Shown: piece by piece, positions 17,701 through 64,000 of the stretch
Layout of the letters: each line of letters opens with the position of its first letter
Numbering within the stretch: position 1 is the stretch's first letter
Source of the DNA: an uncultured Planctomycetota bacterium
Lineage (GTDB): Bacteria > Planctomycetota > Planctomycetia > Isosphaerales > Isosphaeraceae
DNA: 64,000 nt
Reading direction: 5' to 3'
Assembly (NCBI GenBank): GCA_963823665.1
Contig: CAWGMQ010000010.1
Coordinates: 2,112,001-2,176,000, forward strand
Position numbers and translations under genes: made by a program
The notes under the pieces: generated by a model
Databases searched by the model: none
Told to the model about the DNA's origin: nothing
Seen by the model: the letters and a program-made list of their open reading frames with translations, nothing else

Positions 17701-20617
17701 CGAACGAGTAGGTGGTCGCATTCCCCGCGCTATCGACTGACTTGATCACATTGCCTTGTGAATTAAAGGATTGGAGGTTTGTTGTCCCGTCAGGCAGTTG
17801 CACCGTCGTCAAGCGGTCCTGGCTATCGTATAGATAGGTCGTGGTATGATTATTCGCGTCAGTAAATGTGCTGAGCTGGCCGGTCGATGTGTAGGTCATC
17901 GTGGTCAGGTTCGTCAGCGCATCCTCGACGACGGTGAGGTTCCCGGAGCTGTACGTGTAGCTCGTCGTGTTCCCATCAGCGTTGGTGAACGTGAGCGGCT
18001 CGGCATCGCTGTTGTAGGTGTAGTTTTCCTCGTTTGTATCTTCGTAGATAATGCTGACCACGTTGCCCTTGGAGTCATAGCCAAACTGCGTATTCCGATT
18101 AACCTGGTCCACGGTCACGGTCGCCAGGCCGTTGGAATTCCTGTCGAAGAGCTGATCGTTGCCCAGGGGATCGATGATGTTGCCGGGCAACCCCATGCCC
18201 ATCCAGTCGGGCTGAATGGTCGTCGTGTTGCTATTCGGGCTCGTGTACGTGCTGCCCGCCACGGCGAGCAGTGTACTCGGAGCCGGGCTGCCCGACGTGC
18301 CGCTGTTCGTCCAGCCTGCCTCCTGGTCGTTGGTAAAGTCCTCGGTTGTGCTATCTGGCCGGTTCACCGAGCTTACACGCCCACCAGAATCGTAGTTTAT
18401 GGTGGCGGTGTGCGAAAGCGGGTCGGTTATCTGAGTCAGTTTTCCACCCGACGCGTAGCTATAGCCCCAGGTGCTGGCGTCTGGCAATTCCGCCTGGGTC
18501 AGGTTTCCACCAGAATGAGTGAGCGTGGTGAAGCGCGAGGCTGGGTCTTCGATGCTCTGGAGATAGCCACCGCTGTACGTGAAGGTTGTGAACTTGCCGA
18601 GGTAATCTTCGATCGTGGTCAGGTTGCCGCCGCTGTAGGAGAACGTGGTGTGATTTCCGTTCAAGTCGATGATGGCCGTCTCCGAGCCGCCGGAATTGAA
18701 CTTGATTTGCGTGCCATCGGTCAGGGTGCGAGTCCATCCACCCCCCGAATTGCTGACCAGCGTCGAGAACTCACCGGCGGGGTCGGTATAAGTGCCGCCG
18801 CCGCTGCCGCCGGTGGCAAACCACAGCGAGCGGCCGTTGTCGCCCAGATCAAGAATCACACCGCCTGTTGCAGACGTGATCTGCTCCAAACCCTGCAACG
18901 TCCAGCCAGCGCCAAATTCGTTGCTCGAGTAGTTGAGCAGATTCGTCTCGCCACTGTATGTCAAAGTCGCCACCCCCGACCCGATATCCACCACCTGCGC
19001 CGAGTAGGTGTACCGGCCGGTGCTCAGCGAGGTCGCATTGGTCGCCTGGAGGTTGATCTGCTGCACGTCTCCCGTGTTCAGCGTACTCGTACTGGTGGAG
19101 GTGTTGTAGTAATAGGTCGTGAGCGGCGTGCTGCCGTTGAAGGTGAGCTGGGCGCTCACCTGGCTCGGCACCGTGGCAGGAATCGTGTTCTCGACCGTCA
19201 CGATGGGCTCCGGTTGCGCCGTCAGCGAATCATACGTCAATGCGAGTGCGGGCACATTCGGGTTGTAGCTCGGCAGGTCAATCTCGGTGTCGAGCGACCC
19301 ACTGTTCGCATCGACCGACGCGTTGTCACTTGGAAATGAGGGCGAAGACAGAAGCTGCTGGCTCGGCGCCAGCGAGGTCGCCCAGGAGGCATTCGTGCCG
19401 CCGCCCGATGGGCCGCTAACCGGCCCTCCCGGCGGCATCCAAAAATCGTACGTGTACGTCAGGGTTTGTAAGGAAGTATCCGTCACCGAAAGAGTCACCG
19501 AGGTGGAATGACCGTACCCAGCCTCGTTGGTGTTGTCCCACCGGAAGTTGAGCTGGTCGGTGCTGGTGCCGGAGATGGAAGTTGCTGGCAAGCCACTTGT
19601 GTTCCAACTGTACGTCGATACAGTAGCGCCAGAAACCTGCGCGATCAAATCCACCCAGCCGTCGAGCGTGGCGAGCTGTTCGACACCCGGCTGCAACACG
19701 ACGCCGGATTGATTATCCAGCACATAAAGCCCAAAGGGAGCCGAAACGCCCGGTGTGAAGCCGGCGTAGTTGCCGGTCACCGGGTCCGGTGTCGAACCTG
19801 GAGGCGGAGTGCTCCCACCCGATGGAGTCGAACCCGGGTCGGTAGCCGGGCTGAGCGTGACGCCACCGCCGCCGCCCTGGTTGCTCTCGCCGGAAGCAGC
19901 GCCGGCTCCGGCGTGGACGAGCGAGATCTTCGCAACCGGCGGAGCGCCGCCCGTGCCGGGTGATGCGATCTGAGTGCCGGCGCCGCTGGCGCCCGCAACA
20001 GCCGCCAACAATGCGGCCGAAGCGCCACCACCGGCGCTCGCGGCCGGAGTGGATGCAGGTAATCGCAACGGCGTGATGGCACCGCGCGCGGCGTTCTGCG
20101 TTCCGCGCGATGCGCTCGCTCCACCGCGCGGTGCCTGCGCCGGCCCGCCACCTGGTCCCTTGGCTGCATGCCACGGCTTCGAGATTCCCTGGTCGACCGC
20201 CGGCTTGGCGCTCAATGTGAGCCAATTGTTCGAAGCTTCACTGCTGGAGCGGCGCCCGACCGCGCCGGACGCTTCAGCCGCAGAGGAACCACCCGTCCCC
20301 GCGATCTGACCAATAGCGAGCGCGTCAATCGACCTCAGCAGCTTGGCTGGAAGTGCGTACGGCTTCCTGCTGGATCCGCCCGCCTTCTTTACCGCGTCCT
20401 TGGCTGCCGTAAGCATGTTGAGTGCGCGATTCGCGCCATCGGGATACATGAACCCAAGCGCGATCAAGTTGCGGAGGGCGTTCGTCGCCACCCCCACAAG
20501 GCTGATGGGTTCGGTGATCTGCGTCCTCGACTCAAGCCGGTCCAGGCGATCCACATTCCGGCGAAGCATCCGGCGGCGGCGTTCGGTATATCCGATGTGC
20601 AGGCGGAAGAGACCCAT
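14719..20617 (-). CDS. RHS/YD-repeat protein 1 (single frameshift at ~16576)
   Basis: Many TTTYxYD repeats; RHS core YLTDKLDSVR..YDSFG..FKFAGMEYD..YYDRARAYD..GRFTSLDP..NLFNYVGNDP. One extra base versus paralog 2 splits the ORF. Confidence 0.9.
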
Positions 20618-48741: not shown

Positions 48742-51264
48742 TCAATGGTTAAACAGGAATTCACGGCTGTTAAGCAACGCCCAGAAGATGTCTTCAAGCG
48801 CCTGGGACCCGATCCTTGGCGGTGGCAATAAGCGGCGTGAGCTTCGCAAGCTCCTGCTTGTCCGGCTTGCGCGAGAAACAGCGCACGTACAGCTCGGTGA
48901 TCCTCTCTTCGGGCGGCTTCTTGCCCGAGGAAAGCTGTGCGACCAATCCGCCCTGGCGGATCTTGTCGGTGACCGTTCCCCCATTCAGCAAGTGCAGGGC
49001 CTGCGACAACGTCGGCTCCATCTTGACCTCGCAGGAACACGGCGTCTCGCGCGTCGCCCGGCCGAATGTCTTGAGGAAATACGTCGACCGCGTGCCGTCG
49101 GCGATCTGCACAGCCCGCGCCCCCACCGGCAGACCGTCGAACTTATCCTTGGTGTTGGTGACGGCACTGATCGTATCGAGCAGGTTCTCGGCCTTGATCC
49201 TCCGCACCAGAGCATGGGCGAAATTCTTCTCGTCGCTCTCGTTACTGTCGTTTCGCCGCGTCGTTCGCTGATAGGTTCTCGAATTGCAAATGTCGCGCAC
49301 CAGCGCCTTCAAGTTGTACTTCGTGTCGGTAAAGTGCTTGCCGAGAGCCTCGAGCAGCTCCGGATTCGAAGCAGGGTTCGATACCCGGAAATCATCAACC
49401 GGCTCGACGATTCCCACTCCCATGAAGTGGGCCCAGACCCGGTTGGCGAATGAAGTCGCGAACCACGGGTTCCGCGGCGACGCCAGCCATTTGGCCAGCA
49501 CGACGCGGCGGTCCTTTCCTGCCACATCGGGCGCCTCGGCCCCCAGAAACTTGGGCGGCATCACCCTGCCACCGACCGGATGAGTCACCTCGCCGCCACC
49601 CGAATTGAAGATGATCGTCTCGCGATAATCTTCCGCTTGCTTGCGGCCGATCTGCGCGAAGAACGCGGCGAAGCTGTAATAGTCGTTCTGGGTCCAGCGA
49701 TCGAACGGATGGTTGTGGCACTGCGCACACTGCACGCGAATCCCCATGAAGACCTGGGCCACGTTCTCGGTGAGCGGCAAGGTCTCGTTCGTAATCTGGT
49801 AGAAGTTGGTCGCGGCGTTCTTGAAGGTTCCACCGCTGGCGCCGAGTAGCTCCTGAACCATCTCGTCCATCGGCATGTTCTTGGAGAGCTTGTCAACCAG
49901 CCAGTTATAATAAAGGAACATCGCCTTCTGGCTCACGTTGCGCGTGGGGTCGGTGCGCACCTGCAACAGCTCGGCCCACTTCGAGACCCAGATCTCGGAA
50001 AACTCCTTGCGCTCGAGCAGCTCGTCAATCCACTTCGACCTCCTGGCAGGGTCGGTCGATTTCATGAAGCGATCGTATTCTTCCATGGTCGGCGGCAGCC
50101 CGACGATATCGAGCGCAACCCGGCGCAAGAATGTCTCGTCGTCGCACTGGCCCGACGGGGCAATCCTCAGCTTCTTGAGCTTTTCGTTCACCAGCTTGTC
50201 GATGTAATTCGGCTCAGGCTCATCCGCTGGGAAGGTGAATTTAAGCGCGTGCGGCAGCACGATGAACTGCGAGCCCACGGTATGCGTCTCGAACCGGGCC
50301 ATCACGAACGCCTCGCCGCGCTCCCCGCCGTGACCAGACCGCTCGTGCTCACGGGCGCCGAGACGTCGTTATTGGTGAGAAATACTGCCAGGCTCGTCAC
50401 GTCGCGATCGGTGCCGTCGGAATAGCGTGCGCGAACGGTCAACTGCTGGGTCGATCCCTTCCCGTCGAGGACGCACTGCTTCGGATAGAGGTCGACGCCA
50501 ACCACGGCGGGAACCTTCGCCACATCGTCGTTCAGCGCTCCGGACTGGATCCACGTGTGCAGCGTGTTGTACAGCTCGCTCGAAGGCTCGAATCGCTTCC
50601 CTCCAGTGTGGGGAACAGCCCCGGTGGCCTTCTCGAGCAGCGTGCTTTCGGCCGGCACGGCTCGATTGATTCGCCTGCCGACCATCTCGCGCGTCAACCG
50701 GAAATGGTCACCTTCGGGGTCAAACCCGAACAGCGAGATCCGGAATCCATCCTTGCCGCGCGCCGCCCCGTGGCAGCTCCCGGTATTGCAACCCGATCGC
50801 ATGAACACGGGCATCACATCGAGCCGGAAGCTCAGCGGCGGCGAGACAGTCGCCTGCGCGACCTTCACCGGCACGCTGACGGTCTTGCCGCCAAAGCTCA
50901 CGGTGAGCGCCGTGGCGCCGTCGGCTGCGGGATAGAAGATCGCCCCGTCGCGCCTCGCGGGCTTGGAATCAGCCAATGCCAAAGTCGCTTCCCTGGTCAC
51001 ATCCCGCGTGATCCCATCGGCAAAAGTCGCCTGCACGACGACCGACTGCCGGTCGCGCGCGGTCGTGAGATTGATCTCCGACGGGTAAACCGCCAAGCTC
51101 GCCAGAGGCGCGGCTTTCCCCGTGGCGAAAAGCGGTTCTGGTAGGTTCGGCAGTTTGCCGTCACCGGCCAAAGCCGCTCTGCCGGAGACGAGAAGCAGGA
51201 AGCAGCACAGTTGAACCCGGAAATTCGAGGATGACAGAGATATCATCGCGAAGGAGTCCTTCAC
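48742..51264 (-). CDS. DUF1549/DUF1553 (PSCyt2/PSD1) protein with Ig-like (Big_2) domains; frameshifts ~50310 and ~48800
   Basis: GCNTGSCHG, NYIDKLV, FLRRVALD, CAQCHNHPFD, NRVWAHFMGVG and LEDIFWALLNSREFLFNH. Confidence 0.9.
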
Positions 51265-51323
51265 TGAGAGACTGGTCCAGGGCGGAAAGCCCTTTTTACC
51301 ATTCCTTTGTTTCTCAATTCAGT

Positions 51324-53757
51324 TCATTTGCCCGTCTTGGCTTGTTTGGTGTCGAGCCTCAGCTTCTCGAGCCGCGTCAGCGGCTTGGCCGCCGGAGCCG
51401 CCGGCTTGGGCGCAGCCGCAACCGGCGCAGGCGCGGCGGCACTGGGCTTCGGAGGGAGCGGTACGTCGATCCGGAGCGCTCCCGTGCCGATGTTGTGCAC
51501 GATCGGCTCGCCGTTCTGGGTAATCACCACCTGGCAGAACAGGCTGGCGTGATTGCCGGCCGGCGAGACCTTGTCGGTCTTGATATGGAACATCAGGTCC
51601 GTGGTGTCCTTGGTGATCTTCTTTACGTCCGTCGTCACCTTGTTGGGCAGCCCGATCAGGGTGACGGTCGCCTCACCCGGAAAATCGACCGCCTTGGCAA
51701 CCTTCACCGCCATGTCGACCTCCTTGCCCTGCTCGACACTGGCAGCCGTGTAAGCCAAACCCAGGTAAGGAGCGGCGATCGTCAAATTGGCAAGCTGCGA
51801 CGAGACACTGATCGGGCCCGACGCAACTCCCGAGGCGCCGTTGACGACAATCTTCCAGGTCCGCAGCTCGGCGCCGCCGTCCGCGTTCATGGGAATCACC
51901 GCCTCGTTCTGTTTCTCCGGGATCTGGATTCCGCCGCCGGAGCCCACGCCCGGTGGATTCCACGGCAGATAAACCGAGATCGGCGCCGTGAACCCCGCCT
52001 TGCGGATCGCCCGCACTTTCAGCCCCATCGACCCACCGCGCACCAGTGGCACCTTGGGCTCGACGATCTCGATCGTGTAGGGACATTCCTCCGTCACCGC
52101 CACGGCAAGCCGCTCGACTGTCCGCGACCACACGTTGACGTTGTTCTGCCCCAGCACCAGGACCGACATCTGCTCGAACCGCGACGGCACGATCAGCTTG
52201 GCATCGGTCGGCTTACCCGCGACGTCCGCCAGCGTCACCGCAAGTGCGGCGTCCGGCTTGGCAGAGAACAACACCGGAACCACCACCTGGCTGGCGGCGA
52301 TCGTCGGGGCCTCGACCGAAACCCCCGCAGGCAGCCCAGCAACGCTGAGATTCAGTTCGCCGCCGAAGTCGGACCGATTGCCATACAAAAGGATCGCCTG
52401 CCGGTTGCCCTTCGGCACCGCAAGCGACATCACTCCGGTTCCCAGCGGGATCTGTTCCGCGTTGGTCGTCACCACGAGCTGCGGCTCGACCGGTGTCACC
52501 TCGATCCGATACGCATAATCCGGCCCTCCCTTGCCGAGCTGGTCGATCAGCCAGATGGCGTACTCGGCATCTTCGGGGGCTTGAAAGCGGAAGAAGCTGT
52601 CAGGGCCGAACGAGTCGTCCGCGCCCAGCATCGCGCCTCCCCCCTTCTTCCCCAGGTACATCACCGGGTCCAGCGGCGAACGGATTCGCCTCGCGTAGCA
52701 GTGGATGTCGAAAACCTGCCCCTTCGTCGCCTTGAAGATGAACTGGTCCACATCGCCGGGCTTCTCGATCACGCCGTTCAAGGCCGCAGGCGCCTGAAAG
52801 ACCGTCGCGTGCGCCTGGTCCTCATTCGGCTCTTTCTCGAGAACGTTGCGAAAGCGCCGTCAGCCGGAATGCATTGGGGTAGGGCGAAATTCCCTTCTCG
52901 TCCTGGCGCTCAATGCCGAACTCACGGTCGGCTTTCTCAGGAAGCTTGATCGTCGTCGTGACATCGCCGGTCGGGTCGCCAATCCACCGCACCTGCAGCG
53001 TCTCGCCCGGCTTGCCGCCCCCGGGCAGCACAGCCGTCGCTCGCGGGAAGTTCCCCACGTGCAAACGGTAGATGCACGCTCCGTTCCCGGCGTAGGCGCT
53101 CTCCCGCACCTGAATGATGTACTTCCCGTCCTCAGGTGCAAGCACCGAGGTGAACCCGTCGCGCCACACGAGCGCGGCATCATCGCTGACTCCCAGCTCG
53201 AATCGCTTCGCGTTCAGGATCGCAACACAGGGATCGAATTCCGTGATCCCCAGGCGCAGGCCCTCCACCTCCGCCGAGATCCGCTCCCCTTTCTTCGCTT
53301 GCACCACGAAGTAATCGACGTCTTCGTTGTCGGCGATGCCGGTCACCGTCACGTTCATCGCAATCGCTTGAGGAGCCTGGAAATCGTTGTTGGGTTCGAC
53401 TTCCGCAATCTCCTTGAGCGCCCCTACGCTGAACGTGCGCAGCTCGCTGATCCCGCTCGCCGTCCGCACCCGCAGGTCGTGCAGACCTAGCGGGCAGTCA
53501 GCGGCAATCTTGATCTTCGCCTTGACGTTGTTGTCGTCGACTTTCTTGAGCGAAAGCGTCGCGATCCCGCGCTGATAATAAACGATCTCCTGCGCGTCGC
53601 CGAGGCGCGCGCCCGAAAGCGTGATCTCCAGTTCCGTGCCGCGCTGGCCGCCGACCGGACGAATGGCCCCCAGTGACGGCGTGGCCGCGCAGACCTCGGA
53701 CGAAAACGAGAAGTAGAACACGATCGCGACGCTGCACAGCAAGATGCGAAATCGCAT
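51324..53757 (-). CDS. PPC (pre-peptidase C-terminal) domain secreted protein; frameshift(s) ~52830-52850
   Basis: PVGGQRGT, EVEPNN, DVDYF and GVIEKPGDVDQF; sits in the usual DUF1501 operon position. Confidence 0.85.
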
Positions 53758-53798
53758 GAACCTACCTCTAAGTGACTTCAAGCGAGCAGTAAGTGATT

Positions 53799-55109
53799 TC
53801 AAGCCAGCAGGTCCTTGACCACTTTGCCGCCGTCGACGATCTCGATGGGCCGGTTGCCGGGCGCCATGAGCTCCTTGTCCGCGACGATCCCCATGAGGTG
53901 ATAAACAGTCGTGGCCAGGTCCTCCGGGCCGAGCGGGTCTCGCTCCGGCTCGCTGGCCGTCGCGTTCGACAACCCGTAAATCGCCCCGCGCTTGATGCCG
54001 CCGCCGGCCAGCACCACGCTGAAAACCTTGGGCCAGTGGTCGCGCCCTGCATCCTTGTTGATCTTCGGCGTCCGGCCAAACTCGCTCGAGACCATCACGA
54101 CCGTGCGGTTCAACAGCCCCGTGCGATCGAGATCGCGAATGAGCGCGGAAAATGCCTGGTCGAACGGCGGCATCTGGCCCTTCATGCCGGCGACGATCTG
54201 GGTGTGCATGTCCCACCCGCCGTAGTCCACCGTCACGAATCGCACCCCGGCCCCCACCAACCGCCGCGCCAGTAGCATTCTCTGGCCCGCGGCGTGACGC
54301 CCATACTCGTCGCGAATCTTGGCAGGCTCCGCGCCGATGTTGAACGCCTCCCGGGCCTTCTGCGAGCTGATCAGGCTGTAAGCCCGCTGATAGAACGTGT
54401 CCATCGCCGAAATGTTGTCACTCTTCTCACGTTCCGCAAAGTGAGCATTCACGGCATCCAGCACCGTTCGCCGGGTGGTGAATCGCGTTTCATTGATCCC
54501 ACCGGGCAAGTTCAAGTCCTGAACCTGAAACCCCGGATCGGCCGGATCACGCCCCAGAGAAAATGGAGAAAATGACGAGCTCAGGTAGCCAGTGCCGGCG
54601 TACGTGTTCGGCTGGTTCGGAATGCAAACGTAAGGCGGAAGGTTGTTTTTCGGGCCATATTCGTGGGAGACCACACTGCCCATGCTTGGGTACTGCAGCG
54701 CGGGGCTCGGCCGGTAGCCGGTGAACATGTTGTGCGTGCCGCGCTCGTGGGCGGCTTCGCCGTGCGTCATCGAGCGGATGACGGTGAGCTTGTCGGCGAT
54801 CTGGGCCGTCTGAGGCAGTGTCTCGCTGAACTTTTCGCCCTCGATCTTTGTAGCGATCGAGCCCATGTCACCCCGGTATTCGATCGGCGCGAACGGCTTG
54901 GGATCAAACGTCTCCTGGTGGGCGATGCCGCCGGGCAGGAAGATATGAATCACCGAGTCGGCCTTGGCCGTGATGGCCGCATAGGTTTTCTGGTCGGCAC
55001 GGGCCTCGAGCCGGAGCAAGTCGGCCAGTGTCAAGCCGCCAAGTCCGATCGTACCGACCGTCAGGAATCCGCGGCGGTTCAGCGTGTTGCGAGATTGGCC
55101 GATTGCCAT
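53799..55109 (-). CDS. DUF1501 family protein with Tat-like signal
   Basis: NRRGFL, FLPGGIAHQETFDPKP, LARRLVGAGVRFV, WDMH, SEFGRTPKIN and GRDHW. Confidence 0.93.
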   Translation of the reverse strand: MAIGQSRNTLNRRGFLTVGTIGLGGLTLADLLRLEARADQKTYAAITAKADSVIHIFLPGGIAHQETFDPKPFAPIEYRGDMGSIATKIEGEKFSETLPQTAQIADKLTVIRSMTHGEAAHERGTHNMFTGYRPSPALQYPSMGSVVSHEYGPKNNLPPYVCIPNQPNTYAGTGYLSSSFSPFSLGRDPADPGFQVQDLNLPGGINETRFTTRRTVLDAVNAHFAEREKSDNISAMDTFYQRAYSLISSQKAREAFNIGAEPAKIRDEYGRHAAGQRMLLARRLVGAGVRFVTVDYGGWDMHTQIVAGMKGQMPPFDQAFSALIRDLDRTGLLNRTVVMVSSEFGRTPKINKDAGRDHWPKVFSVVLAGGGIKRGAIYGLSNATASEPERDPLGPEDLATTVYHLMGIVADKELMAPGNRPIEIVDGGKVVKDLLA

Positions 55110-55754
55110 CGAGACTTCTCCTTTTGTTCCCAAGGTTCATGAGGCGAATCGAACATTGACGCTGCAACTTGAGCGCCAGTGACTGCAAAAGAATCGAGGT
55201 TTGAGCGAAAAACTCCAGAACGTCTTGGTGGTCCGGTCATTAGGGCGGAATGAGTCGGGCCGTTCAGGCGCGCCGTCACGGGAATCGCGAATTCATGATC
55301 ATCGCGGATAATCACCCGTGCAATCGGTCTGAAGTCGGGAAAGCTCAAGATGCATTGGCACCATAAATCTCGAAAGATACGAATGTTAGGCAGGATTCTC
55401 CAAGCATCGGGAGCGGTTTGCCACCCGAGTACCCAAAGAAGCGGAGAGCGGTTGTTGAGGTCGAAGCAACTCATGCCATGGAGTGCTGGTGCAACTCTCG
55501 CGTGCGTTCGGCCACGATCTACGGGGGCCCCGATTGGAAGTATCGATCCCAGATGTCACGCGGTCGAGCCATTGCGATGGTCCATACATCCATCGAGGTC
55601 ATAATATAACGCCCAGCTGTGAAAGTTGCACCCCTTCTTTTGAGATTCATCGGGATTTCATTTCCGAACGGAACTTCTTTGGAAATCGTGATCGGCACGT
55701 GTTAGCATCAGACTCCAACGACATTTGACCGTCATCCGAGAGGGGGCATGCGTG

Positions 55755-57678
55755 ATGAACACAGCCACCAACCTCGTCATGGGCCTTGTAAGCCTCCTCT
55801 TCTTGGCGGTTTCGGTCGTGCCGGCACACTCGGAAATGACGGAGTATGACGGGCCTGGGCCAGGCAATTCCGGCAAAGCGGATCCGCACTCCTACGGTAA
55901 CCCCGAACAAGTGCAGATTCAGCAGTTCGAGCTCGACCTCACCGTCGACTTCCAGAAGCGGCGGTTGAGCGGAATCGTCATTCTTGACATCCGGCGACGA
56001 GAAGGCGCGCCAGACGCCGTGACGCTGGACCTCGATACCCGCGGGCTCACGATCGAACAGGTCGACGCGCACCGGCTCGACCCGGTCCGCTTCGATCCAT
56101 TCAAGGTGGTACCCTTTCATCTCGGCCCGCTCGACCCGATCCTGGGGTCGAAGCTGTCGATCGAGCTCACGCCCGCCGCGATGCAAGTTCGCATCCGATA
56201 CCACACTTCGCCGGATGCGAATGCGCTCCAGTGGCTCGACCCCGCGCGCACCGCCGGGAAGAAACAGCCGTTCCTCTTCACCCAGTCGCAGGCGATCCAC
56301 GCTCGAAGCTGGATTCCGCTTCACGATTCGCCGGGCGCCCGCGTGAGCTACACCGCAACGATTCGTGTCCCGCCGGGAATGACGGCCGTGATGGCGGCCG
56401 AGCCGCGGCTCAATCCCAGGGAAACGGCCAGGGGCATCTTCCGCTATCGCTTGCCGCAGTCGATACCACCTTACCTTGTTGCGATGGCCGTCGGTGACCT
56501 GGCGTTCAAGTCGCTCGGCCACCGCACCGGCGTCTGGGCCGAGCCCGCCATTCTCGAGGCCGCAGCCAGCGAGTTCGCCGACGTCGAATCGATGCTCGCC
56601 GCCTGTGAAAAAGACTTCGGTTTCTATCGCTGGGGCCGCTTTGACATCCTGGTCCTCCCTCCCAGCTTTCCGTTTGGTGGCATGGAAAACCCTCGTCTCA
56701 CCTTCGTCACCCCCACCATCCTGGCCGGCGATCGTTCCCTCGTCTCGCTGATCGCGCATGAGCTCGCTCACTCGTGGTCCGGCAACCTCGTGACAAACGC
56801 CACCTGGCGCGACTTCTGGCTCAACGAGGGGTTCACAACCTACATAGAGCGCCGGATCATCGAATCCGTCTACGGCCGCGACCGCGCCGACATGGAAGCC
56901 TTGCTCGGCTTCTACGAGCTTCGCAGCGAGCTTCCCCGGCTCAAGAAGGCCGACCAGATCCTCCACATCGACCTGACCGGCCGCGACCCGGATGACGGTA
57001 TGACGAGCGTTCCCTACGAGAAGGGGGCCCTCCTGGTGCAAGCAATCGAACGGGCCTTCGGCCGCGACCGCTTCGACGCATTTCTCCACGATTATTTCAA
57101 CACATTCCGATTCCAGAGCATCACGACTGCCCAGTTCGAGGAGTTCCTGCGCCAGGCTGCTCGGTGATGACTCCGAATCCGCCCGCATCGTCGACTTGCG
57201 GCTCTGGCTCGACACGCCCGGCCTTCCCAAGATTGTTGTCGCGCCCCAATCCGCCCGTCTGGACGCGGTCGCTCGCCTGGCATCGAGCTGGACCGATCAG
57301 TCCACTCCGACCGAAGAACTCCGCGCGGTGGACTGGTCGACCCAGGAATGGGTCCGTTTCCTTCGCGTTCTCCCCGCCAACCTCCCGGTCGAGCGCCTCG
57401 CCGATCTCGATCGCCAGTTCGGCCTGACCCAGCGCGGCAATGCCGAGATCGCCCACGTCTGGCTCCTCCTGGCGATCAACCACGGCTATCACCCCGCCGA
57501 CGCGCGGCTCGAGGCGTTCCTGACCACGATCGGCAGGCGCAAGCTGGTGCTCCCGCTCTACCAGGCGTTGATTGCAACCCCCGACGGCCGTCGACGCGCC
57601 GAAGCAATCTACGCCAAGGCGCGGCCGTTCTATCATCCCATCACGATCGAGTCGATTGATCGGATCATGAAACAATAA
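55755..57678 (+). CDS. M1 family zinc aminopeptidase (leukotriene-A4-hydrolase-like); frameshift ~57150
   Basis: GGMEN, HELAH..NEG (HEXXH-x18-E), PYEKG and C-terminal IGRRKLVLPLY..YHPI. Confidence 0.92.
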
Positions 57679-58420: not shown

Positions 58421-60433
58421 TCACGGCCCACGCACGTCCTGCGGCGCCATCCCTTCCCCCGCCGCCCCACCCGCACCGGCCCCAGCGTTCATTCCCCCGG
58501 CATTCAACCTCGCCAATCGCTCCCGCGCCTCCTTCTCCGCACGTTGACGAATCCACTCCCGCCGCCTGATTTCCTTCCACGCGTCCCGTCGCTCGTAGTC
58601 CGTCAAGGCACGTGCAACCGGCTGTGTTGTCGAACCTCCACTTCCACCCGCCTCCGCACCCCCCACCGGAATTGGCTTCGTTTGCAAAATTGGCTTCGTT
58701 TGACAATCGTCAAGTCCCGAAACACCGCCGGAATTCGTCGGAACTTCAATAATATCTTCATGTTGTGCTATGCACGCGTCATCACAAAAATTGGCTTCGT
58801 TCGGCGCTTTTTCACCGATTTGACTCTCGTCGCCGCCGGCGGCAACCTCTTCTTCCCGCCCTCGATCAGCAGCTTCCGCCAGTTGCTCTTGAGTGACTTC
58901 GCTCGCACCTCCCGCATTCAGTTCGATGTCGCACCGCTCGGCTTCCTCCGATTCTGCACCCACCGTTTTCGAGTTCGGTACTTCATCTTCCAGGGCAGCC
59001 CCAGGCGCCGACTCGCCGTCGCCGTCGCCCGCAGCGCCAACGTACTTCTCAGGAAGATACCCACCACACGCCAGAACGTCCGATTCCTCGACCACAACCG
59101 ACTCCCACCCCCGCCCCTTCTCATTCGAAGTAGCAGGCACACTCCGTGTGCCGTCTGCCTGAGGCTCACGGCCAATCTCAACCGCCGCGCCCGAACCACT
59201 ACCCGCGAGTGGCCCGCCGCTCCCACAGTCACCCGAATCCGCCTCCCCATCCGCGTGTTGGGCGCGAGTCTCCTGACCCCGCCCTCCCCGCGACCGCAGG
59301 TCTCCCTTCTTCCCACCCCCCACATTCTCCGCCCACCAGGCCGCCGGCCGCCCATCATATGGGCTGATAACATCTTTCCCAGGCACCGGCGGCAATCCCT
59401 GCGCATCGCTATCCGCCTTCCGCGCCCGTACCTCCTGCCGAATGACCTTGCCCCCCCGCTCCACCGACCCCTTGGCTCTCAAGAAGTATCGCCGCATCGC
59501 CTCAGCTTCCTTGGTATAAACAAATCCCTTGCGTCGCCTCGTCCGCGCAGGTTCATCCTTGATATGGGTGTCATGTTCCGCCGCAATGTCCCACACCCGC
59601 TCGATCTCGCCCTCCACCAGCTCGATCAGGCTCTGCCTGGCCTTCTCCTTTTCACCGCGCTGCGATAGGTCAGGCCACAACGCCACGACCGCCTTCACGT
59701 GGGCCTCGAGCATCAGCTCGTTCATATCGCTGAGCAGATCGTCAAACGGTTTGCCCATCGGCCGAAGCGCGTGGCTCGCCGCGAAAACCTCAGCGACCCG
59801 CCGGTCTGCGGGGCCGTCCACAGGATTCCGCCCCAGCAACCGTAGCATCATCAGCCGATCGCCGGAGGACCAAAAACGTTTGCGAGCCCGTTCCAGCAGT
59901 TCCTCAAGAACCTCAAGGATCCAGTAGCACCCCATCGCGCTCGATTCCAGTTTGCGCATGAGTTCGTCGGGCTTGATTGCCGGCGCAGTTTCGCTACCCC
60001 ATGACGGCCCCCCTGGTTTCTTGTTGTTAAACCGACGGGTGCCGAACAGCGCAACCGGCACGCCTCGCGAATCGGTGAACAGCAGGTCGCCCGTTTCGCG
60101 CACCTCTTTGATCTCGTCGTCCTCGGCGTTGTCGATCTGGCTTTGAGTGAGTTCCAGATAAGCGCCCCTCACCCGATCCATGTCCGACGCCAGGAACAGG
60201 TTGGCATTCAATAGAAACTCCTCGGGGTCACTCTCCACCCCATAATGCGCGGACCAGCGAAAGTATCGCGCTTCATACGCAATGCTTTCCTCCCGCGCGA
60301 GCTTCTCCCGCTCCGCCCGAAGACCGTGCTTCCGACTATTTCGAGCGCTTTTTGCCCGGGTTTCTGGAGTTTTCGGCCCGGTGGAGCGCAACGCATTGCG
60401 CCGATTCGCATTGATTTGTGCGTCAGAGGCCAT
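58421..60433 (-). CDS. Hypothetical protein of the 'ANRRNA..STGP..KHG' family with low-complexity C-terminus
   Basis: MASDAQINANRRNALRSTGPKTPE..SARNSRKHGL; NEANF/QTKPI repeats near the C-terminus. Confidence 0.75.
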   Translation of the reverse strand: MASDAQINANRRNALRSTGPKTPETRAKSARNSRKHGLRAEREKLAREESIAYEARYFRWSAHYGVESDPEEFLLNANLFLASDMDRVRGAYLELTQSQIDNAEDDEIKEVRETGDLLFTDSRGVPVALFGTRRFNNKKPGGPSWGSETAPAIKPDELMRKLESSAMGCYWILEVLEELLERARKRFWSSGDRLMMLRLLGRNPVDGPADRRVAEVFAASHALRPMGKPFDDLLSDMNELMLEAHVKAVVALWPDLSQRGEKEKARQSLIELVEGEIERVWDIAAEHDTHIKDEPARTRRRKGFVYTKEAEAMRRYFLRAKGSVERGGKVIRQEVRARKADSDAQGLPPVPGKDVISPYDGRPAAWWAENVGGGKKGDLRSRGGRGQETRAQHADGEADSGDCGSGGPLAGSGSGAAVEIGREPQADGTRSVPATSNEKGRGWESVVVEESDVLACGGYLPEKYVGAAGDGDGESAPGAALEDEVPNSKTVGAESEEAERCDIELNAGGASEVTQEQLAEAADRGREEEVAAGGDESQIGEKAPNEANFCDDACIAQHEDIIEVPTNSGGVSGLDDCQTKPILQTKPIPVGGAEAGGSGGSTTQPVARALTDYERRDAWKEIRRREWIRQRAEKEARERLARLNAGGMNAGAGAGGAAGEGMAPQDVRGP

Positions 60434-60807
60434 ATCAGTATAAATTCCTATTCAAATGAGCTTGGAAGCCCGGCCCGAAGTCCCGCGACCCCGAGAATTT
60501 CCCCAAACTTCCCAAAGCCCTCTACAGAGATGATCTACAAACCCGCTTCTTTTTTTGCCCAAAATGGGCCGATCCCAAGAAAAGTTTTTCCGCCCGCCCG
60601 CATAATCGGACCTGGCAATACGTTGCCAATCGGCTCGTCGACCGGACTTGCTCTTCGGCGGCGGGGACGATCGGCGGCAGAAGTTGAAGCCTCGTTCCGG
60701 TGGCATTAAGCTGTGTTGCAGCAAAACCAACCGGGATATCCGGCATTGATGGCCATGAGCGCAAGGCCCATGACGTGCGCCTGCAGATTCGCGACCGGAA
60801 GGCGACC

Positions 60808-61910
60808 ATGACGGCGACCAGGATCAACGGGCTCCATTGGAAGATGATCACCGACGCGATCCGCGCCGGAACCTGCGTCCCCTTTCTGGCGCCGCCGTCA
60901 ATGTCAAGAGCCGTACCAAGGGCTACGAATACAAAGGACTGCCCCTGGGGGCCGACGTCGCTCTCCGCCTGCTGAAGGAGCTGCTCGACGACGGTTTCGA
61001 AGGCGTCGCGGTCGAAGAGCTTCAACATTACGCTGGAGCTGCCCGGGCTGGCTGGCGATTGCTTGAAAAGATCCTGGGCGACGAGGTCCCCGGACTCGAT
61101 GGCCAAGCCATCAAGGCACGGCTTGCTGGACAGCCGGAATACGCCCAGCTATTGGCCTACGAGAAGGTCGAGCTGGCTGGGCTCGACGACGACCTCAAGC
61201 GCGTCGCGATCGTGAATCTGCCCCGCGTAGCCCTGCACTTTGGACTGAAAGCGAAGTGGGACTACACCTTCATCAAGCAACAGCTTGAGTCCATCCTGAT
61301 GGAAGAGGAGGCCGATCCTTCGAAGCTCCTCTCGACCCTCGCCGCTCTGCCGCTGCGAATGATCGTCACCACAAACTTCGACCGCCTGATGGAGAAAGCG
61401 CTCGACGCAGCGGGCATCACCTATCGGGTCGTCGTCCAGCCGATTGAGGGCTTCAACACCTCCAGCGGCCGCAAGCAGGTCACTGAGCTGGCAAAGTCGG
61501 ACGGCCTGATCCTCTACAAATTCCACGGCGAGTTCGGCGACAAGGCCACCGGATCGCCTACGGGCGGCGGACCCTCCTCGCCTCGGATCATCCTGACCGA
61601 GGAAGACTACATCGAATTCCTCAGTGTCCTGGGTAAAGATGGCGCCGTCCCCAACTTGATCACGGAGCGGCTGGCGGACAACACCCTGCTCTTCCTCGGC
61701 TACAGCCTCGAGGACTGGGATTTCCGCACGATGCACAAGATCCTGATCGACCGCCTGGTCAAACACAGCCAGCGCACCTCGTTCGCGATCCAGAAGGACC
61801 CGCCGGAGTTCTGGGTGCGCTACTGGGAGTCCAAGAAGGTCCTGATCTACAACGTCGACCTCTACGAGTTCGCGGACCAATTGAAGGAACGCCTGGCGCG
61901 GGTCCGTTGA
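60808..61910 (+). CDS. SIR2-like (SIR2_2) domain protein; frameshift ~60888
   Basis: GGAAGG RBS; MTATRINGLHWKMITDAIRAGTCVPFL[G]AAVN, then IVTTNFDRLME, LYKFHG, ILTEEDY and LLFLGYSLEDWDFR. Confidence 0.88.
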
Positions 61911-61947
61911 CCATGATCGCGGCCCGAGAACGGGTTGGGGAGCCAGT

Positions 61948-64000
61948 ATGTCAGGCACAATGCCCTATCGATTTCTCGACTCCTACCAGCTTGGAGATGA
62001 AGCCCTCTACTTCGGCCGCAAACGCGAAACCCGCATCCTGTTGGCCGACATCGTGGCCAACCGGCTCGTCGTTCTGTTCGCCCGGACCGGTACCGGCAAG
62101 ACCTCTCTTATCAACGCCGGCGTCCGCCCGCTCCTGCACGAGCGCGGCTATGCGACGCTGCCTGTCCGCGTCCGAAAAGATCCGGTCGAATCCATCCTTT
62201 GGACGCTTCGCACGAGGGACGAAGGCCCCATCGTCCCGACCGGAGAAACCCTCTCCGCGCAGCTCGAGAGTGTCGCCGACCAGCTCGACCGGCCTGTTGT
62301 GTTCTTTCTCGACCAGTTCGAGGAGTTCTTCGTCTACCACCTCGGGCAGCAGCCCGAACAGGCGGCGAGCTTCATCGAGGAAATGGCGACCATCTGTGAG
62401 CGCACCGAGTCACGCGTCCACATCGTCATGTCGATGCGCGAAGAGTTTTTCGGTGGGATGGACGCCTTTCGAGACGCCATTCCAACGATCTTCCACAACG
62501 AATCAAACCTTCGGCTCCGATGGTTCGACCTCGAGCAGGCGCGCGAGGCAATCGAAGGCCCACCACGCGTCTTCGACGGAACAACTGTCGCCGAAGATCT
62601 CGTCCAGCGTTTGCTCGCCGACCTGGCGGAAGACGGTGCAGTCGAACCCGCCAAGCTTCAGATCGTTTGCGATTCGCTCTGGCGGGAGGAAGTGCGGCGC
62701 CGGACATCCCGGCCGGCCGGTCCGCTGACGCTTGACCACTACGAAGTGCTCGGCCGCGACCGCGGCAGGAGCCGGATCTTCGAGCACATCATCAACCGAC
62801 GGCTGGAAGACCAGTTCGCGCGGATCGACTCGGAGCAGCAGTTAAAGCTCCTGGAGCGGCTACTCCCTCGCCTCCGAACCCGACGGGGCACGAAGTACAT
62901 CTGGGACCTCGCGCTCCTCGCGAAAGTTCTCGAAACCGATGAAGGTTCGCTGGGCGAGCTGCTCGAGCGCTTGAGCGAGTCGCGCCTGGTGGCGCTGAGC
63001 GCAAAGAGTGAAGGAGGTGCCCAGCTCTTCGTGGAGCTCACGCACGACTACCTGGTCAATCGCCTGCCCGATCTCCGCCGTCGCGTCCGCCTCATCTGGC
63101 CTCGCCGCGTTCTGGAGTCGGCAATCGGAGACGGGGTTGATCGCTCGCCGCCCATCGACGAGCTCGCGTTGGCAACCATTCTTCAGCACGGAAAGCGGCT
63201 GAGCCTGACGGCCCCGCAGGCCGAGCTGCTCTTTCGCTCGGCCCTGCTGTACGGCGGAGGCAGGAGCGCGTCGTGCTTCCGGCTAGCCCGGGCCAGCGGC
63301 GTTGACGTCTGGGGGATCCTCGCCCAGAGCCTCGCATCCCCCGACTCCCGTGAGGCCATTCCCGCCCTGAACTTCCTGGCCCGAGTGCAAACGAAGAGAG
63401 CCTTCCGGATGCTTCAGCAGGCCTTGGGCCGCGATGAGCTGGCGAGGCACCTCAAGGAGACCTTCCTCCCGAAGCGATCGCTGGCGGTGGTCAACTTCCT
63501 CGAGGCACTGCTCGATCACCCGGGTCTCTCGTCCCGGGCCCGCTCTTGGCTGGAGCAATTCGCGAATGCCCCATCGAAGCTCGAGCCCGAGGTATCGGCT
63601 CGGGCCGCGACAGCCCTCTCCAGCCATGCTCCGCCCGGCGGTTCGCGTTCCACGTTCGAGCAGTCAACCGACGCGAGTGCACATCCGACCGCGCAGGCAG
63701 AGGACACAGCCGCCACGCGCACCGACCTCGGCTCCCGTCTGACCGGCATTTCCACGGCCATGACCAGAGGTCGTCTGGTCCTGATCTTAGGCGCCGGTAT
63801 CCACGCTGCGGGGAGGCCTGTCTCGGATACGTGGCACCCTGACAGCTCCAGGTTTTTCCCGCTCGAGTGCGAACTATCGGCCTATCTAGCCGCGAAGTTT
63901 GGTGCTCCCGACGAAATTCGCCACAATCTCGCGAGCGTCGCCCAGTACGTGGCCACAAATGCTGGAACGGGCCCGCTCTACGAAGAGTTGCAAGAGATAG
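61948..64000 (+). CDS. nSTAND1-type STAND ATPase + helical repeats + second SIR2-like domain; partial, runs off the window, absent from the ORF track
   Basis: Translated by hand with no stop: PYRFLDSY..YFGR, Walker A ARTGTGKTS, Walker B FFLDQFEEFF, MSMREEF, LQIVCDSLW, ELTHDYL; from ~63760 GRLVLILGAG..FFPLECELSAYLA..LASVAQYV..GPLYEEL. Confidence 0.88.
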   Translation, partial: MSGTMPYRFLDSYQLGDEALYFGRKRETRILLADIVANRLVVLFARTGTGKTSLINAGVRPLLHERGYATLPVRVRKDPVESILWTLRTRDEGPIVPTGETLSAQLESVADQLDRPVVFFLDQFEEFFVYHLGQQPEQAASFIEEMATICERTESRVHIVMSMREEFFGGMDAFRDAIPTIFHNESNLRLRWFDLEQAREAIEGPPRVFDGTTVAEDLVQRLLADLAEDGAVEPAKLQIVCDSLWREEVRRRTSRPAGPLTLDHYEVLGRDRGRSRIFEHIINRRLEDQFARIDSEQQLKLLERLLPRLRTRRGTKYIWDLALLAKVLETDEGSLGELLERLSESRLVALSAKSEGGAQLFVELTHDYLVNRLPDLRRRVRLIWPRRVLESAIGDGVDRSPPIDELALATILQHGKRLSLTAPQAELLFRSALLYGGGRSASCFRLARASGVDVWGILAQSLASPDSREAIPALNFLARVQTKRAFRMLQQALGRDELARHLKETFLPKRSLAVVNFLEALLDHPGLSSRARSWLEQFANAPSKLEPEVSARAATALSSHAPPGGSRSTFEQSTDASAHPTAQAEDTAATRTDLGSRLTGISTAMTRGRLVLILGAGIHAAGRPVSDTWHPDSSRFFPLECELSAYLAAKFGAPDEIRHNLASVAQYVATNAGTGPLYEELQEI

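Follow-up and report, generated by a model that had tools for sequence, protein, structure and literature searches.

The closest tested system to the gene pair studied here is Avs5, a single protein with an N-terminal SIR2, an nSTAND3 ATPase and a C-terminal TPR/Sel1/PPR sensor (PMC12931631). Our pair lies at the end of a 64,000-nucleotide stretch of Planctomycetota DNA (G000:C10:2112001-2176000), the whole of which we call the window, in an assembly (G000) of 16.5 Mb and 12 contigs. It comprises a stand-alone SIR2 gene, SIR2-A, followed by a STAND ATPase gene, STAND-A, whose product ends in a second SIR2 domain (hereafter the tail). The pair resembles Avs5 in combining a STAND NTPase with a SIR2_2 NADase-type effector, in its helical repeats and GAG/TTNxD motifs and in a predicted depletion of NAD+ upon assembly (PMC12931631, PMC11897194). 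In contrast to Avs5 the effector has its own gene, the ATPase is of the nSTAND1 type with only short repeats, and the terminal second SIR2 is eroded. Membership in Avs5 was rejected as its three defining features (N-terminal SIR2, nSTAND3, C-terminal TPR/Sel1/PPR) are absent, and the only fused homologue is P0198, a natural SIR2-A–STAND-A fusion found in the STAND-A homologue search. The closest design is that of TIR-ParA, likewise uncharacterised, in which an upstream active NAD-cleaving gene precedes an NTPase with a C-terminal inactive copy and for which a two-step NTPase cascade was proposed (bioRxiv 10.64898/2026.10.19.760177). It uses TIR and ParA instead of SIR2 and nSTAND1, and its second NTPase is fused whereas here a separate gene is matched to the inactive domain. 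Only nSTAND1 and SIR2_2 were found in our pair, and membership in TIR-ParA was rejected too.

The nSTAND1 family and the principle of effector-associated domains (EADs) come from Kaur 2020 (PMC7159879) and Kaur 2021 (PMC8195603); in the accessible text SIR2 is mentioned once in the latter, for another system, and not in the former. EAD-coupled systems, enriched in large-genome bacteria, also join interchangeable effectors to an NTPase core through non-catalytic domains (PMC7159879, PMC8195603). EADs, however, are small and homotypic and their adjacent copies are closest relatives, whereas the tail of STAND-A is a full pseudo-enzyme matched to a STAND, and membership was rejected because an approximately unbiased (AU) test on a 50-row subset rejects a grouping of the tail with the adjacent SIR2-A (p=0.007). 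Thoeris ThsA, DSR2 and KomC share the SIR2_2 fold (Foldseek template modelling scores of 0.66-0.73 to the DSR2 and KomC SIR2 chains), but the pair is without the SLOG, TIR, HAM1 or DSR sensor region. Thoeris type I was rejected as neither gene, nor the next one, has a SLOG or TIR match, and Kongming and DSR2 were rejected as well; the PADLOC matches cover no more than short stretches of the SIR2 core. Indeed PADLOC 2.0 gave only partial SIR2-core, WD40 or Walker A matches and NCBIfam none for the STAND; a match to a named system would have told against the preliminary description of this DNA. A published survey of 589 STAND clades covers single-protein receptors (PMC12803255). Our literature search, largely of open-access texts, found neither a STAND with a C-terminal pseudo-SIR2 nor a bacterial sensor-helper STAND relay, although Supplementary Table 2 of PMC12803255 and the supplements of the TIR-ParA preprint may list the family. 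The STAND-SIR2 pair with a C-terminal pseudo-SIR2 is apparently undescribed. We regard it as a real and conserved STAND-SIR2 variant, for which the comparative evidence suggests a two-tier design.

Both genes are on the plus strand. The SIR2-A stop codon ends at 61910 and the STAND-A ATG lies at 61948, confirming the reported gap of 37 nt, and the STAND-A frame, in which the motifs ARTGTGKTS, LDQFEEFF, LQIVCDSLW, ELTHD and LVLILGAG were all recovered, is open through the window end. Retrieval of the downstream contig sequence completed this open reading frame (ORF), which encodes 902 residues and ends 656 nt beyond the window (L006 3949-6657). A putative Shine-Dalgarno-like GGAAGG (60797..60802, plus strand) stands 5 nt ahead of the SIR2-A ATG at 60808, while a promoter and terminator scan of the locus stayed at chance level. 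The GC content of the gene pair, 61-62%, is the same as that of the window, and the gene after STAND-A is an SDR oxidoreductase.

SIR2-A (60808..61910, plus strand; Pfam SIR2_2, E 5e-25) encodes about 367 residues when read through a frame break of one base within a short run of Gs (60888..60890, plus strand), just 5' of the NAD-binding GA motif, which leaves the gene in two frames. The break is absent in the relatives P0233 and P0234 (86% and 78% identity), which read straight through, and a second gene of the window, an M1 aminopeptidase at 55725-57678, is frameshifted between its Peptidase_M1 and Leuk-A4-hydro_C domains, which suggests assembly indel errors. As close relatives are intact and other genes of the assembly are also split, the break is probably an assembly error; of three DNA read runs, from which small shares were used, none spans it. 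The protein carries the motif set of antiphage SIR2 NADases, namely GA-x-N (GAA-V-N), TTNFD, KFHG and FLGYSLEDW, and its catalytic Asn and His are present in 119/119 relatives (the best 120 of 302 matches, less the query). The insert after LPLG, which the preliminary description took to be helical, is real and variable: it covers about 75 residues from LPLG to TTNFD (approximate limits 60950..61200, plus strand, judged from the spacing in relatives), and the distance from GAG to TTN is about 165 residues here and 88-201 in 112 relatives. SIR2-A proteins form one clade paired with STAND-A (Shimodaira–Hasegawa-like approximate likelihood ratio support, 99). Two longer forms of SIR2-A were found, neither of them a STAND fusion, which is weak evidence. 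SIR2-A, a predicted NADase, is likely the effector of the adjoining STAND-A, and NAD depletion, as proposed before, is the likely output.

The ATPase was said to be without an N-terminal effector, and indeed nSTAND1 begins at residue 6 and extends to residue 380 (61963..63087, plus strand; Pfam E 1e-43), followed by SIR2_2 at residues 717-884 (E 1.7e-12), both matches being over the cut-off. The assignment to nSTAND1 is clear (151 bits vs 16.9 bits for nSTAND3, under the nSTAND3 cut-off). STAND-A has what characterises STANDs of the nSTAND1 clade, that is Walker A and B, an NBD-HD1-WHD fold and C-terminal repeats; Walker A (ARTGTGKTS) and Walker B (DQFEE) are intact and K51, D122 and E125 are invariant in 62/62 sequences. 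An AlphaFold2 model of the 902-residue protein (mean predicted local distance difference test score, pLDDT, 90.5; predicted template modelling score, pTM, 0.64) shows residues 385-560 as all helical, giving a short HEAT-like array of about 175 residues (63100..63627, plus strand) as compared to the much longer HEAT arrays of a sister clade. Pfam HEAT_2 and HEAT_PBS match homologues and the sister clade, and no Pfam HEAT match was obtained for the window's own copy. A disordered S/T/A-rich linker follows (residues 564-591, pLDDT <50; 63637..63720, plus strand) and then the tail, assigned to SIR2 clade B (residues 588-902; 63709..64000 on the plus strand and a further 656 nt past the window). 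Some STAND-A proteins carry other ends, among them Macro+TIR (P0054), SIR2+TIR (P0126), WD40, TPR and hydrophobic, possibly membrane-spanning segments (P0054, P0126, P0148, P0182, P0183, P0185, P0189 and L086:8602-11037).

The tail completes a SIR2 fold, as had been anticipated: besides the Pfam match the model contains a full Rossmann fold, and Foldseek matches it to the SIR2 domains of DSR2, KomC and ThsA. Its motifs are nonetheless degenerate, with KPFG for KxHG and ALGLALREW for FLGYSLxDW, and the catalytic His is replaced by Phe786. In PaAvs5 a His or Asn is needed at the catalytic position and Ala or Gln abolish defence (PMC12931631), and with Phe at this position the tail is most likely catalytically inactive. 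Catalytic residues (Asn plus His or Asn) are intact in 29 of 131 C-terminal SIR2s, all <95% identical to one another, and the commonest replacements of the His are Tyr (35) and Phe (26). The view of the C-terminal SIR2 as an effector in an atypical position thus found no support, the catalytic His being missing here and the site eroded in 102/131 homologues. Scaffold residues G615, G787, G836, R845 and W876 are 82-99% conserved in the eroded tails while His786 is replaced.

Nor did the idea that the tail and SIR2-A form one dual-SIR2 unit find support. The tail is 26% identical to SIR2-A, lies in other SIR2 clades (the AU result given above, which also rejects an origin as a SIR2-A duplicate) and matches a different STAND. 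A single origin of all tails was rejected on the same 50-row subset (p 7e-9). By best match the tails fall into clades B (66), D (51) and C (14), and those of B and D are intermixed with free SIR2s, which argues that the tail has been captured at least three times from other modules in which a SIR2 precedes an nSTAND1. The free SIR2s nearest to the window's tail are those of SIR2-STAND pairs, including one on contig 6 of the same assembly (G000:C6). Free SIR2 proteins of 331 residues, P0097 among them, share 91% identity with the P0008 tail, and the four relatives at 70-76% identity are without the His; these sequences indicate that capture of tails is ongoing.

STAND-A and SIR2-A form a conserved unit. 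The first search gave 66 STAND-A homologues, 61 of them with a SIR2_2 match, and among the best 150 of a later search, a list that also includes fragments and the sister clade, 130 proteins were new, of which 65 clearly carry a SIR2 at the C-terminus and several show a faint trace of one. Genomic context was studied in 159 loci (the best 80 of each of two scans, the metagenome scan covering 15 of 64 parts) together with the window and two further loci. STAND-A occurs in 16 distinct loci (L087 and L089 counted once), of which L093 has no upstream DNA; in 14 of the remaining 15 SIR2-A, as its own gene, is directly upstream, and the exception, L103, is a deleted fragment. Sixteen further SIR2-A matches lie on contigs equal in length to one with a STAND-A match, an indirect sign of a shared contig. 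The gene pair and the separate encoding of its SIR2 were therefore seen correctly, and the proposal of a two-component system stands for the two-gene unit; we now prefer three components, the third of which is not at the window locus. The hosts that carry names are assemblies of Blastocatellia, Pyrinomonadaceae, Thermoanaerobaculia and Anaerolineae. Sampling of genomes, which scored only 2-9 candidates per genome, found the pair among 401 genomes of the host phylum in G000 alone, in 0/401 of each of two further sets and in 1/301 and 2/301 of two others (the second including G000). Its absence from the 150 G000 relatives searched points to a horizontal spread. By these counts it is a conserved yet rare family.

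The match between the tail and a particular STAND reflects a more general pattern. Across the loci there are 72 cases of a SIR2 placed immediately ahead of an nSTAND1, either fused to it or encoded by its own gene, and the SIR2 and STAND trees agree clade by clade (distance rho 0.58 for the 67 pairs in both trees and 0.55 for 50 unfused pairs, with 0/999 permutations as high). In 47 SIR2 genes that precede an unfused nSTAND1 gene (L089 and L094 being excluded; the scan covered 33 ORFs selected by length) the catalytic residues are intact in 24/27 without an extra Pfam domain and in 1/20 of those fused to CHAT, TIR, kinase or trypsin; the eroded state requires 4 changes on the tree. N-terminal SIR2-STAND fusions are eroded in 17/19 cases, several behind a cyclase domain. 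AlphaFold2 folds a natural eroded-SIR2–nSTAND1 fusion as a single unit (pTM 0.85, no controlled interface test), a model that suggests a defined contact between the two. The pattern is consistent with SIR2 docking on its STAND, with the possibility of a reduction to a carrier.

Modules in which a CHAT, TIR, kinase or trypsin effector fused to an eroded SIR2 precedes nSTAND1 are widespread as two-gene units (L031, L032, L034, L042, L046, L047, L064, L067, L081 and L129; also L131, L140, L146, L153, L165, L029, L157, L161 and L164), and no description of them was found in our literature search. Cyclase–eroded SIR2–nSTAND1 single proteins occur in Deltaproteobacteria and Riflebacteria assemblies (L013, L014, L018, L019). 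G000 itself holds a very large NLR-like and sirtuin repertoire (37 nSTAND1 and 13 SIR2_2 matches), including a second active-plus-eroded SIR2 arrangement, L198 (G000:C3:1269600-1277070), in which an intact and an eroded clade D SIR2 precede a frameshifted nSTAND1-WD40.

A STAND matching the tail stands beside the pair in four of seven loci (L007, L008, L087 and the genome G1002), in one of them head-to-head; L091 ends 16 bp past the gene and was left out of this count. The gene that follows in L007, L008 and L087 is an nSTAND1 whose clade matches the tail, not one of the STAND-A clade, and it bears WD40 repeats in L007 and L008. An nSTAND1-TPR gene and a MAP3K_TRAF_bd/TPR-S gene lie directly upstream of the three-gene locus L007 (L007:2-4439), forming a small conflict cluster. 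G1002 has an intact clade-B STAND-WD40 head-to-head with SIR2-A at 190 bp, and its tail is 90% identical to P0022, a member of the group nearest to the window's tail. In G151 as in G1002 the SIR2_2 matches number just two, namely SIR2-A and the eroded tail, hence no other SIR2 effector was found for their WD40 STANDs. The sole clade-B STAND-WD40 of G000 (G000:C6:294920) is on another contig than the pair. This locus, L199 (G000:C6:293900-300860), consists of an intact clade-B SIR2 and then a clade-B nSTAND1 with a WD40 region of about 1980 residues, has a subtilase gene upstream and provides the sole candidate for a sensor that matches the window's tail.

Starting from the observed architecture, conservation, catalytic contrast, clade-by-clade pairing, repeated capture and linkage, we propose a relay in which a sensor STAND-WD40 would act through the pseudo-SIR2 tether on the helper STAND-A, and this in turn on the active SIR2-A to cause NAD+ loss; we see roughly even chances that it is right. 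A phage trigger would drive the WD40 STAND into an oligomer. If a SIR2 docks on its cognate nSTAND1, this sensor would bind the pseudo-SIR2 tail and so recruit and cluster, or oligomerise, STAND-A, which under the same docking grammar would be, with its HEAT array, the cargo of a clade-B pseudo-SIR2. Clustered STAND-A would then allow docking and assembly of its presumed effector SIR2-A, and assembly would, by comparison with Avs5 and ThsA, turn on the NADase with loss of NAD+ and a likely abortive phage defence. We infer every binding step and the defence role itself. As G000 has its clade-B sensor elsewhere, on a different contig and behind an intact SIR2 of the sensor's own, the window module would there act as an add-on amplifier or else be orphaned.

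Several observations weigh against the relay. The co-divergence could reflect shared gene history alone, without binding; the phylogenetically independent sign test of cargo against catalytic loss had only 4 pairs and was not significant; and the pTM of 0.85 vs 0.64 for the window protein is no controlled interface test. The 29 tails that keep catalytic residues include that of L008 and 7 of the 14 of clade C, no free partner for clade C tails was found, and in some STAND-A proteins the end is Macro+TIR, TPR or WD40 or has no known domain. No cognate STAND adjoins the pair in three of the seven loci (the window locus, L088 and L213) and none was found in G586, which is fragmented; the adjacent STAND of L087 is broken, the completeness of the G151 and G1002 assemblies is uncertain, and the own intact SIR2 of the G000 clade-B STAND is 39% identical to the tail. 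A defence-island setting was rejected for the window, where the neighbours are a hypothetical gene, SDR, Uma2 and DUF4166.

The main rival is an integrated decoy or guard, where a phage inhibitor of the SIR2 effector of other immune modules would bind the tail as its mimic, free STAND-A and fire SIR2-A, in the manner of the integrated domains of plant NLRs. The tail indeed occupies the slot of the long HEAT sensor array in the sister clade, has been recaptured from free SIR2s with loss of catalysis and retention of the fold, and shares this slot with other immune enzymes (Macro+TIR in P0054, SIR2+TIR in P0126). A decoy would also account for loci with no neighbouring sensor, and G000 holds an intact clade-B SIR2 to guard. 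Yet in G151 and G1002 the pair has kept an intact cognate STAND-WD40, once inverted, with no active clade-B SIR2 found there, and our literature search turned up no inhibitor of these SIR2s; as a general explanation we consider the decoy unlikely. Both may hold, the relay in some genomes and the decoy in others, and the window copy, which has no neighbouring sensor, is where a decoy or an orphan is most plausible.

One could also suppose that two adjacent, independent SIR2-STAND systems were joined by stop loss, with the HEAT array sensing and the tail a decaying passenger. The order SIR2, STAND-SIR2, STAND in L007, L008 and L087 is exactly that of two tandem modules, and the window copy is without a second STAND and has a broken first gene. 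At least three separate captures, a tail in 61/66 STAND-A homologues, the conservation of its scaffold residues beside the replaced His786 and the presence in the P0008 cluster of free copies of the captured SIR2 make such a fusion and decay rather improbable. Nearest to the preliminary description is a tail that senses a metabolite by binding NAD+ or some derivative of ADP-ribose, or that activates SIR2-A by assembling with it, like the hetero-SIR2 activation described for FAM118A/FAM118B (PMC12700824). Avs5, ThsA and FAM118 require filaments for their SIR2 activity (PMC11897194, PMC12700824), the alternative Macro and TIR tails also handle NAD or ADP-ribose, and G615, T720, T721 and D724 are mostly conserved in eroded tails. 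Against this, the NAD-site residues Asn722, Tyr837 and Asp841 are present in only 50%, 40% and 58% of eroded tails, the tail has no specific relation to SIR2-A by identity or AU test, and it was swapped among three clades with SIR2-A constant, which makes this explanation quite improbable.

More broadly, and with somewhat less than even confidence, we suggest that bacteria possess sensor-helper NLR cascades wired by pseudo-enzymes, in which SIR2 would be a clade-specific docking plug for nSTAND1 whose cargo (caspase-like CHAT, TIR, kinase, trypsin, cyclase) can be exchanged. In the family described here the plug would attach a second STAND together with its NADase and, being repeatedly recaptured, would link a single helper with various WD40 sensors, including in trans within a genome. 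In the papers cited here bacterial STAND receptors are single proteins that unite sensor, NTPase and effector. If the relay is true, a sensor STAND signalling via a helper STAND would give bacteria an equivalent of the paired NLRs of plants and would bring threshold or amplification wiring to prokaryotic immunity. The plant pairs RRS1/RPS4, RGA4/RGA5 and also Pik-1/Pik-2 consist of linked sensor/helper STANDs, arranged head-to-head (as in G1002), with an integrated non-canonical domain (PMC9528088). The likeness is an analogy only: in plants it is the sensor that bears the integrated domain, which binds a pathogen effector, whereas the relay would put the domain on the helper, binding the sensor. 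NAIP-NLRC4 is also a sensor/helper STAND pair. A SIR2 that acts as a docking module, and loses catalysis when it carries other cargo, would change the reading of 'SIR2 family' proteins beside nSTAND1 genes. The three-gene loci of G1002 and G151 are compact and make relay vs decoy directly testable, with either outcome being new.

Around the pair, a 670-residue hypothetical gene with no Pfam match (window 58421-60617) is oriented divergently to the SIR2 pair, and 118 bp of its upstream region are repeated at five other genome sites. Further upstream lies a DUF1501 / PSCyt2-PSD1 cluster (window 48794-55133) where adjoining ORFs resemble halves of frameshifted genes; the presence of such genes suggests a planctomycete. 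Downstream a Uma2 gene (L006:8437-9126) has a partial copy near 18144-18400, and between them a large transglutaminase-like, Ig-repeat protein (L006:9889-17596) is apparently split into ORFs of 2116 and 512 residues.

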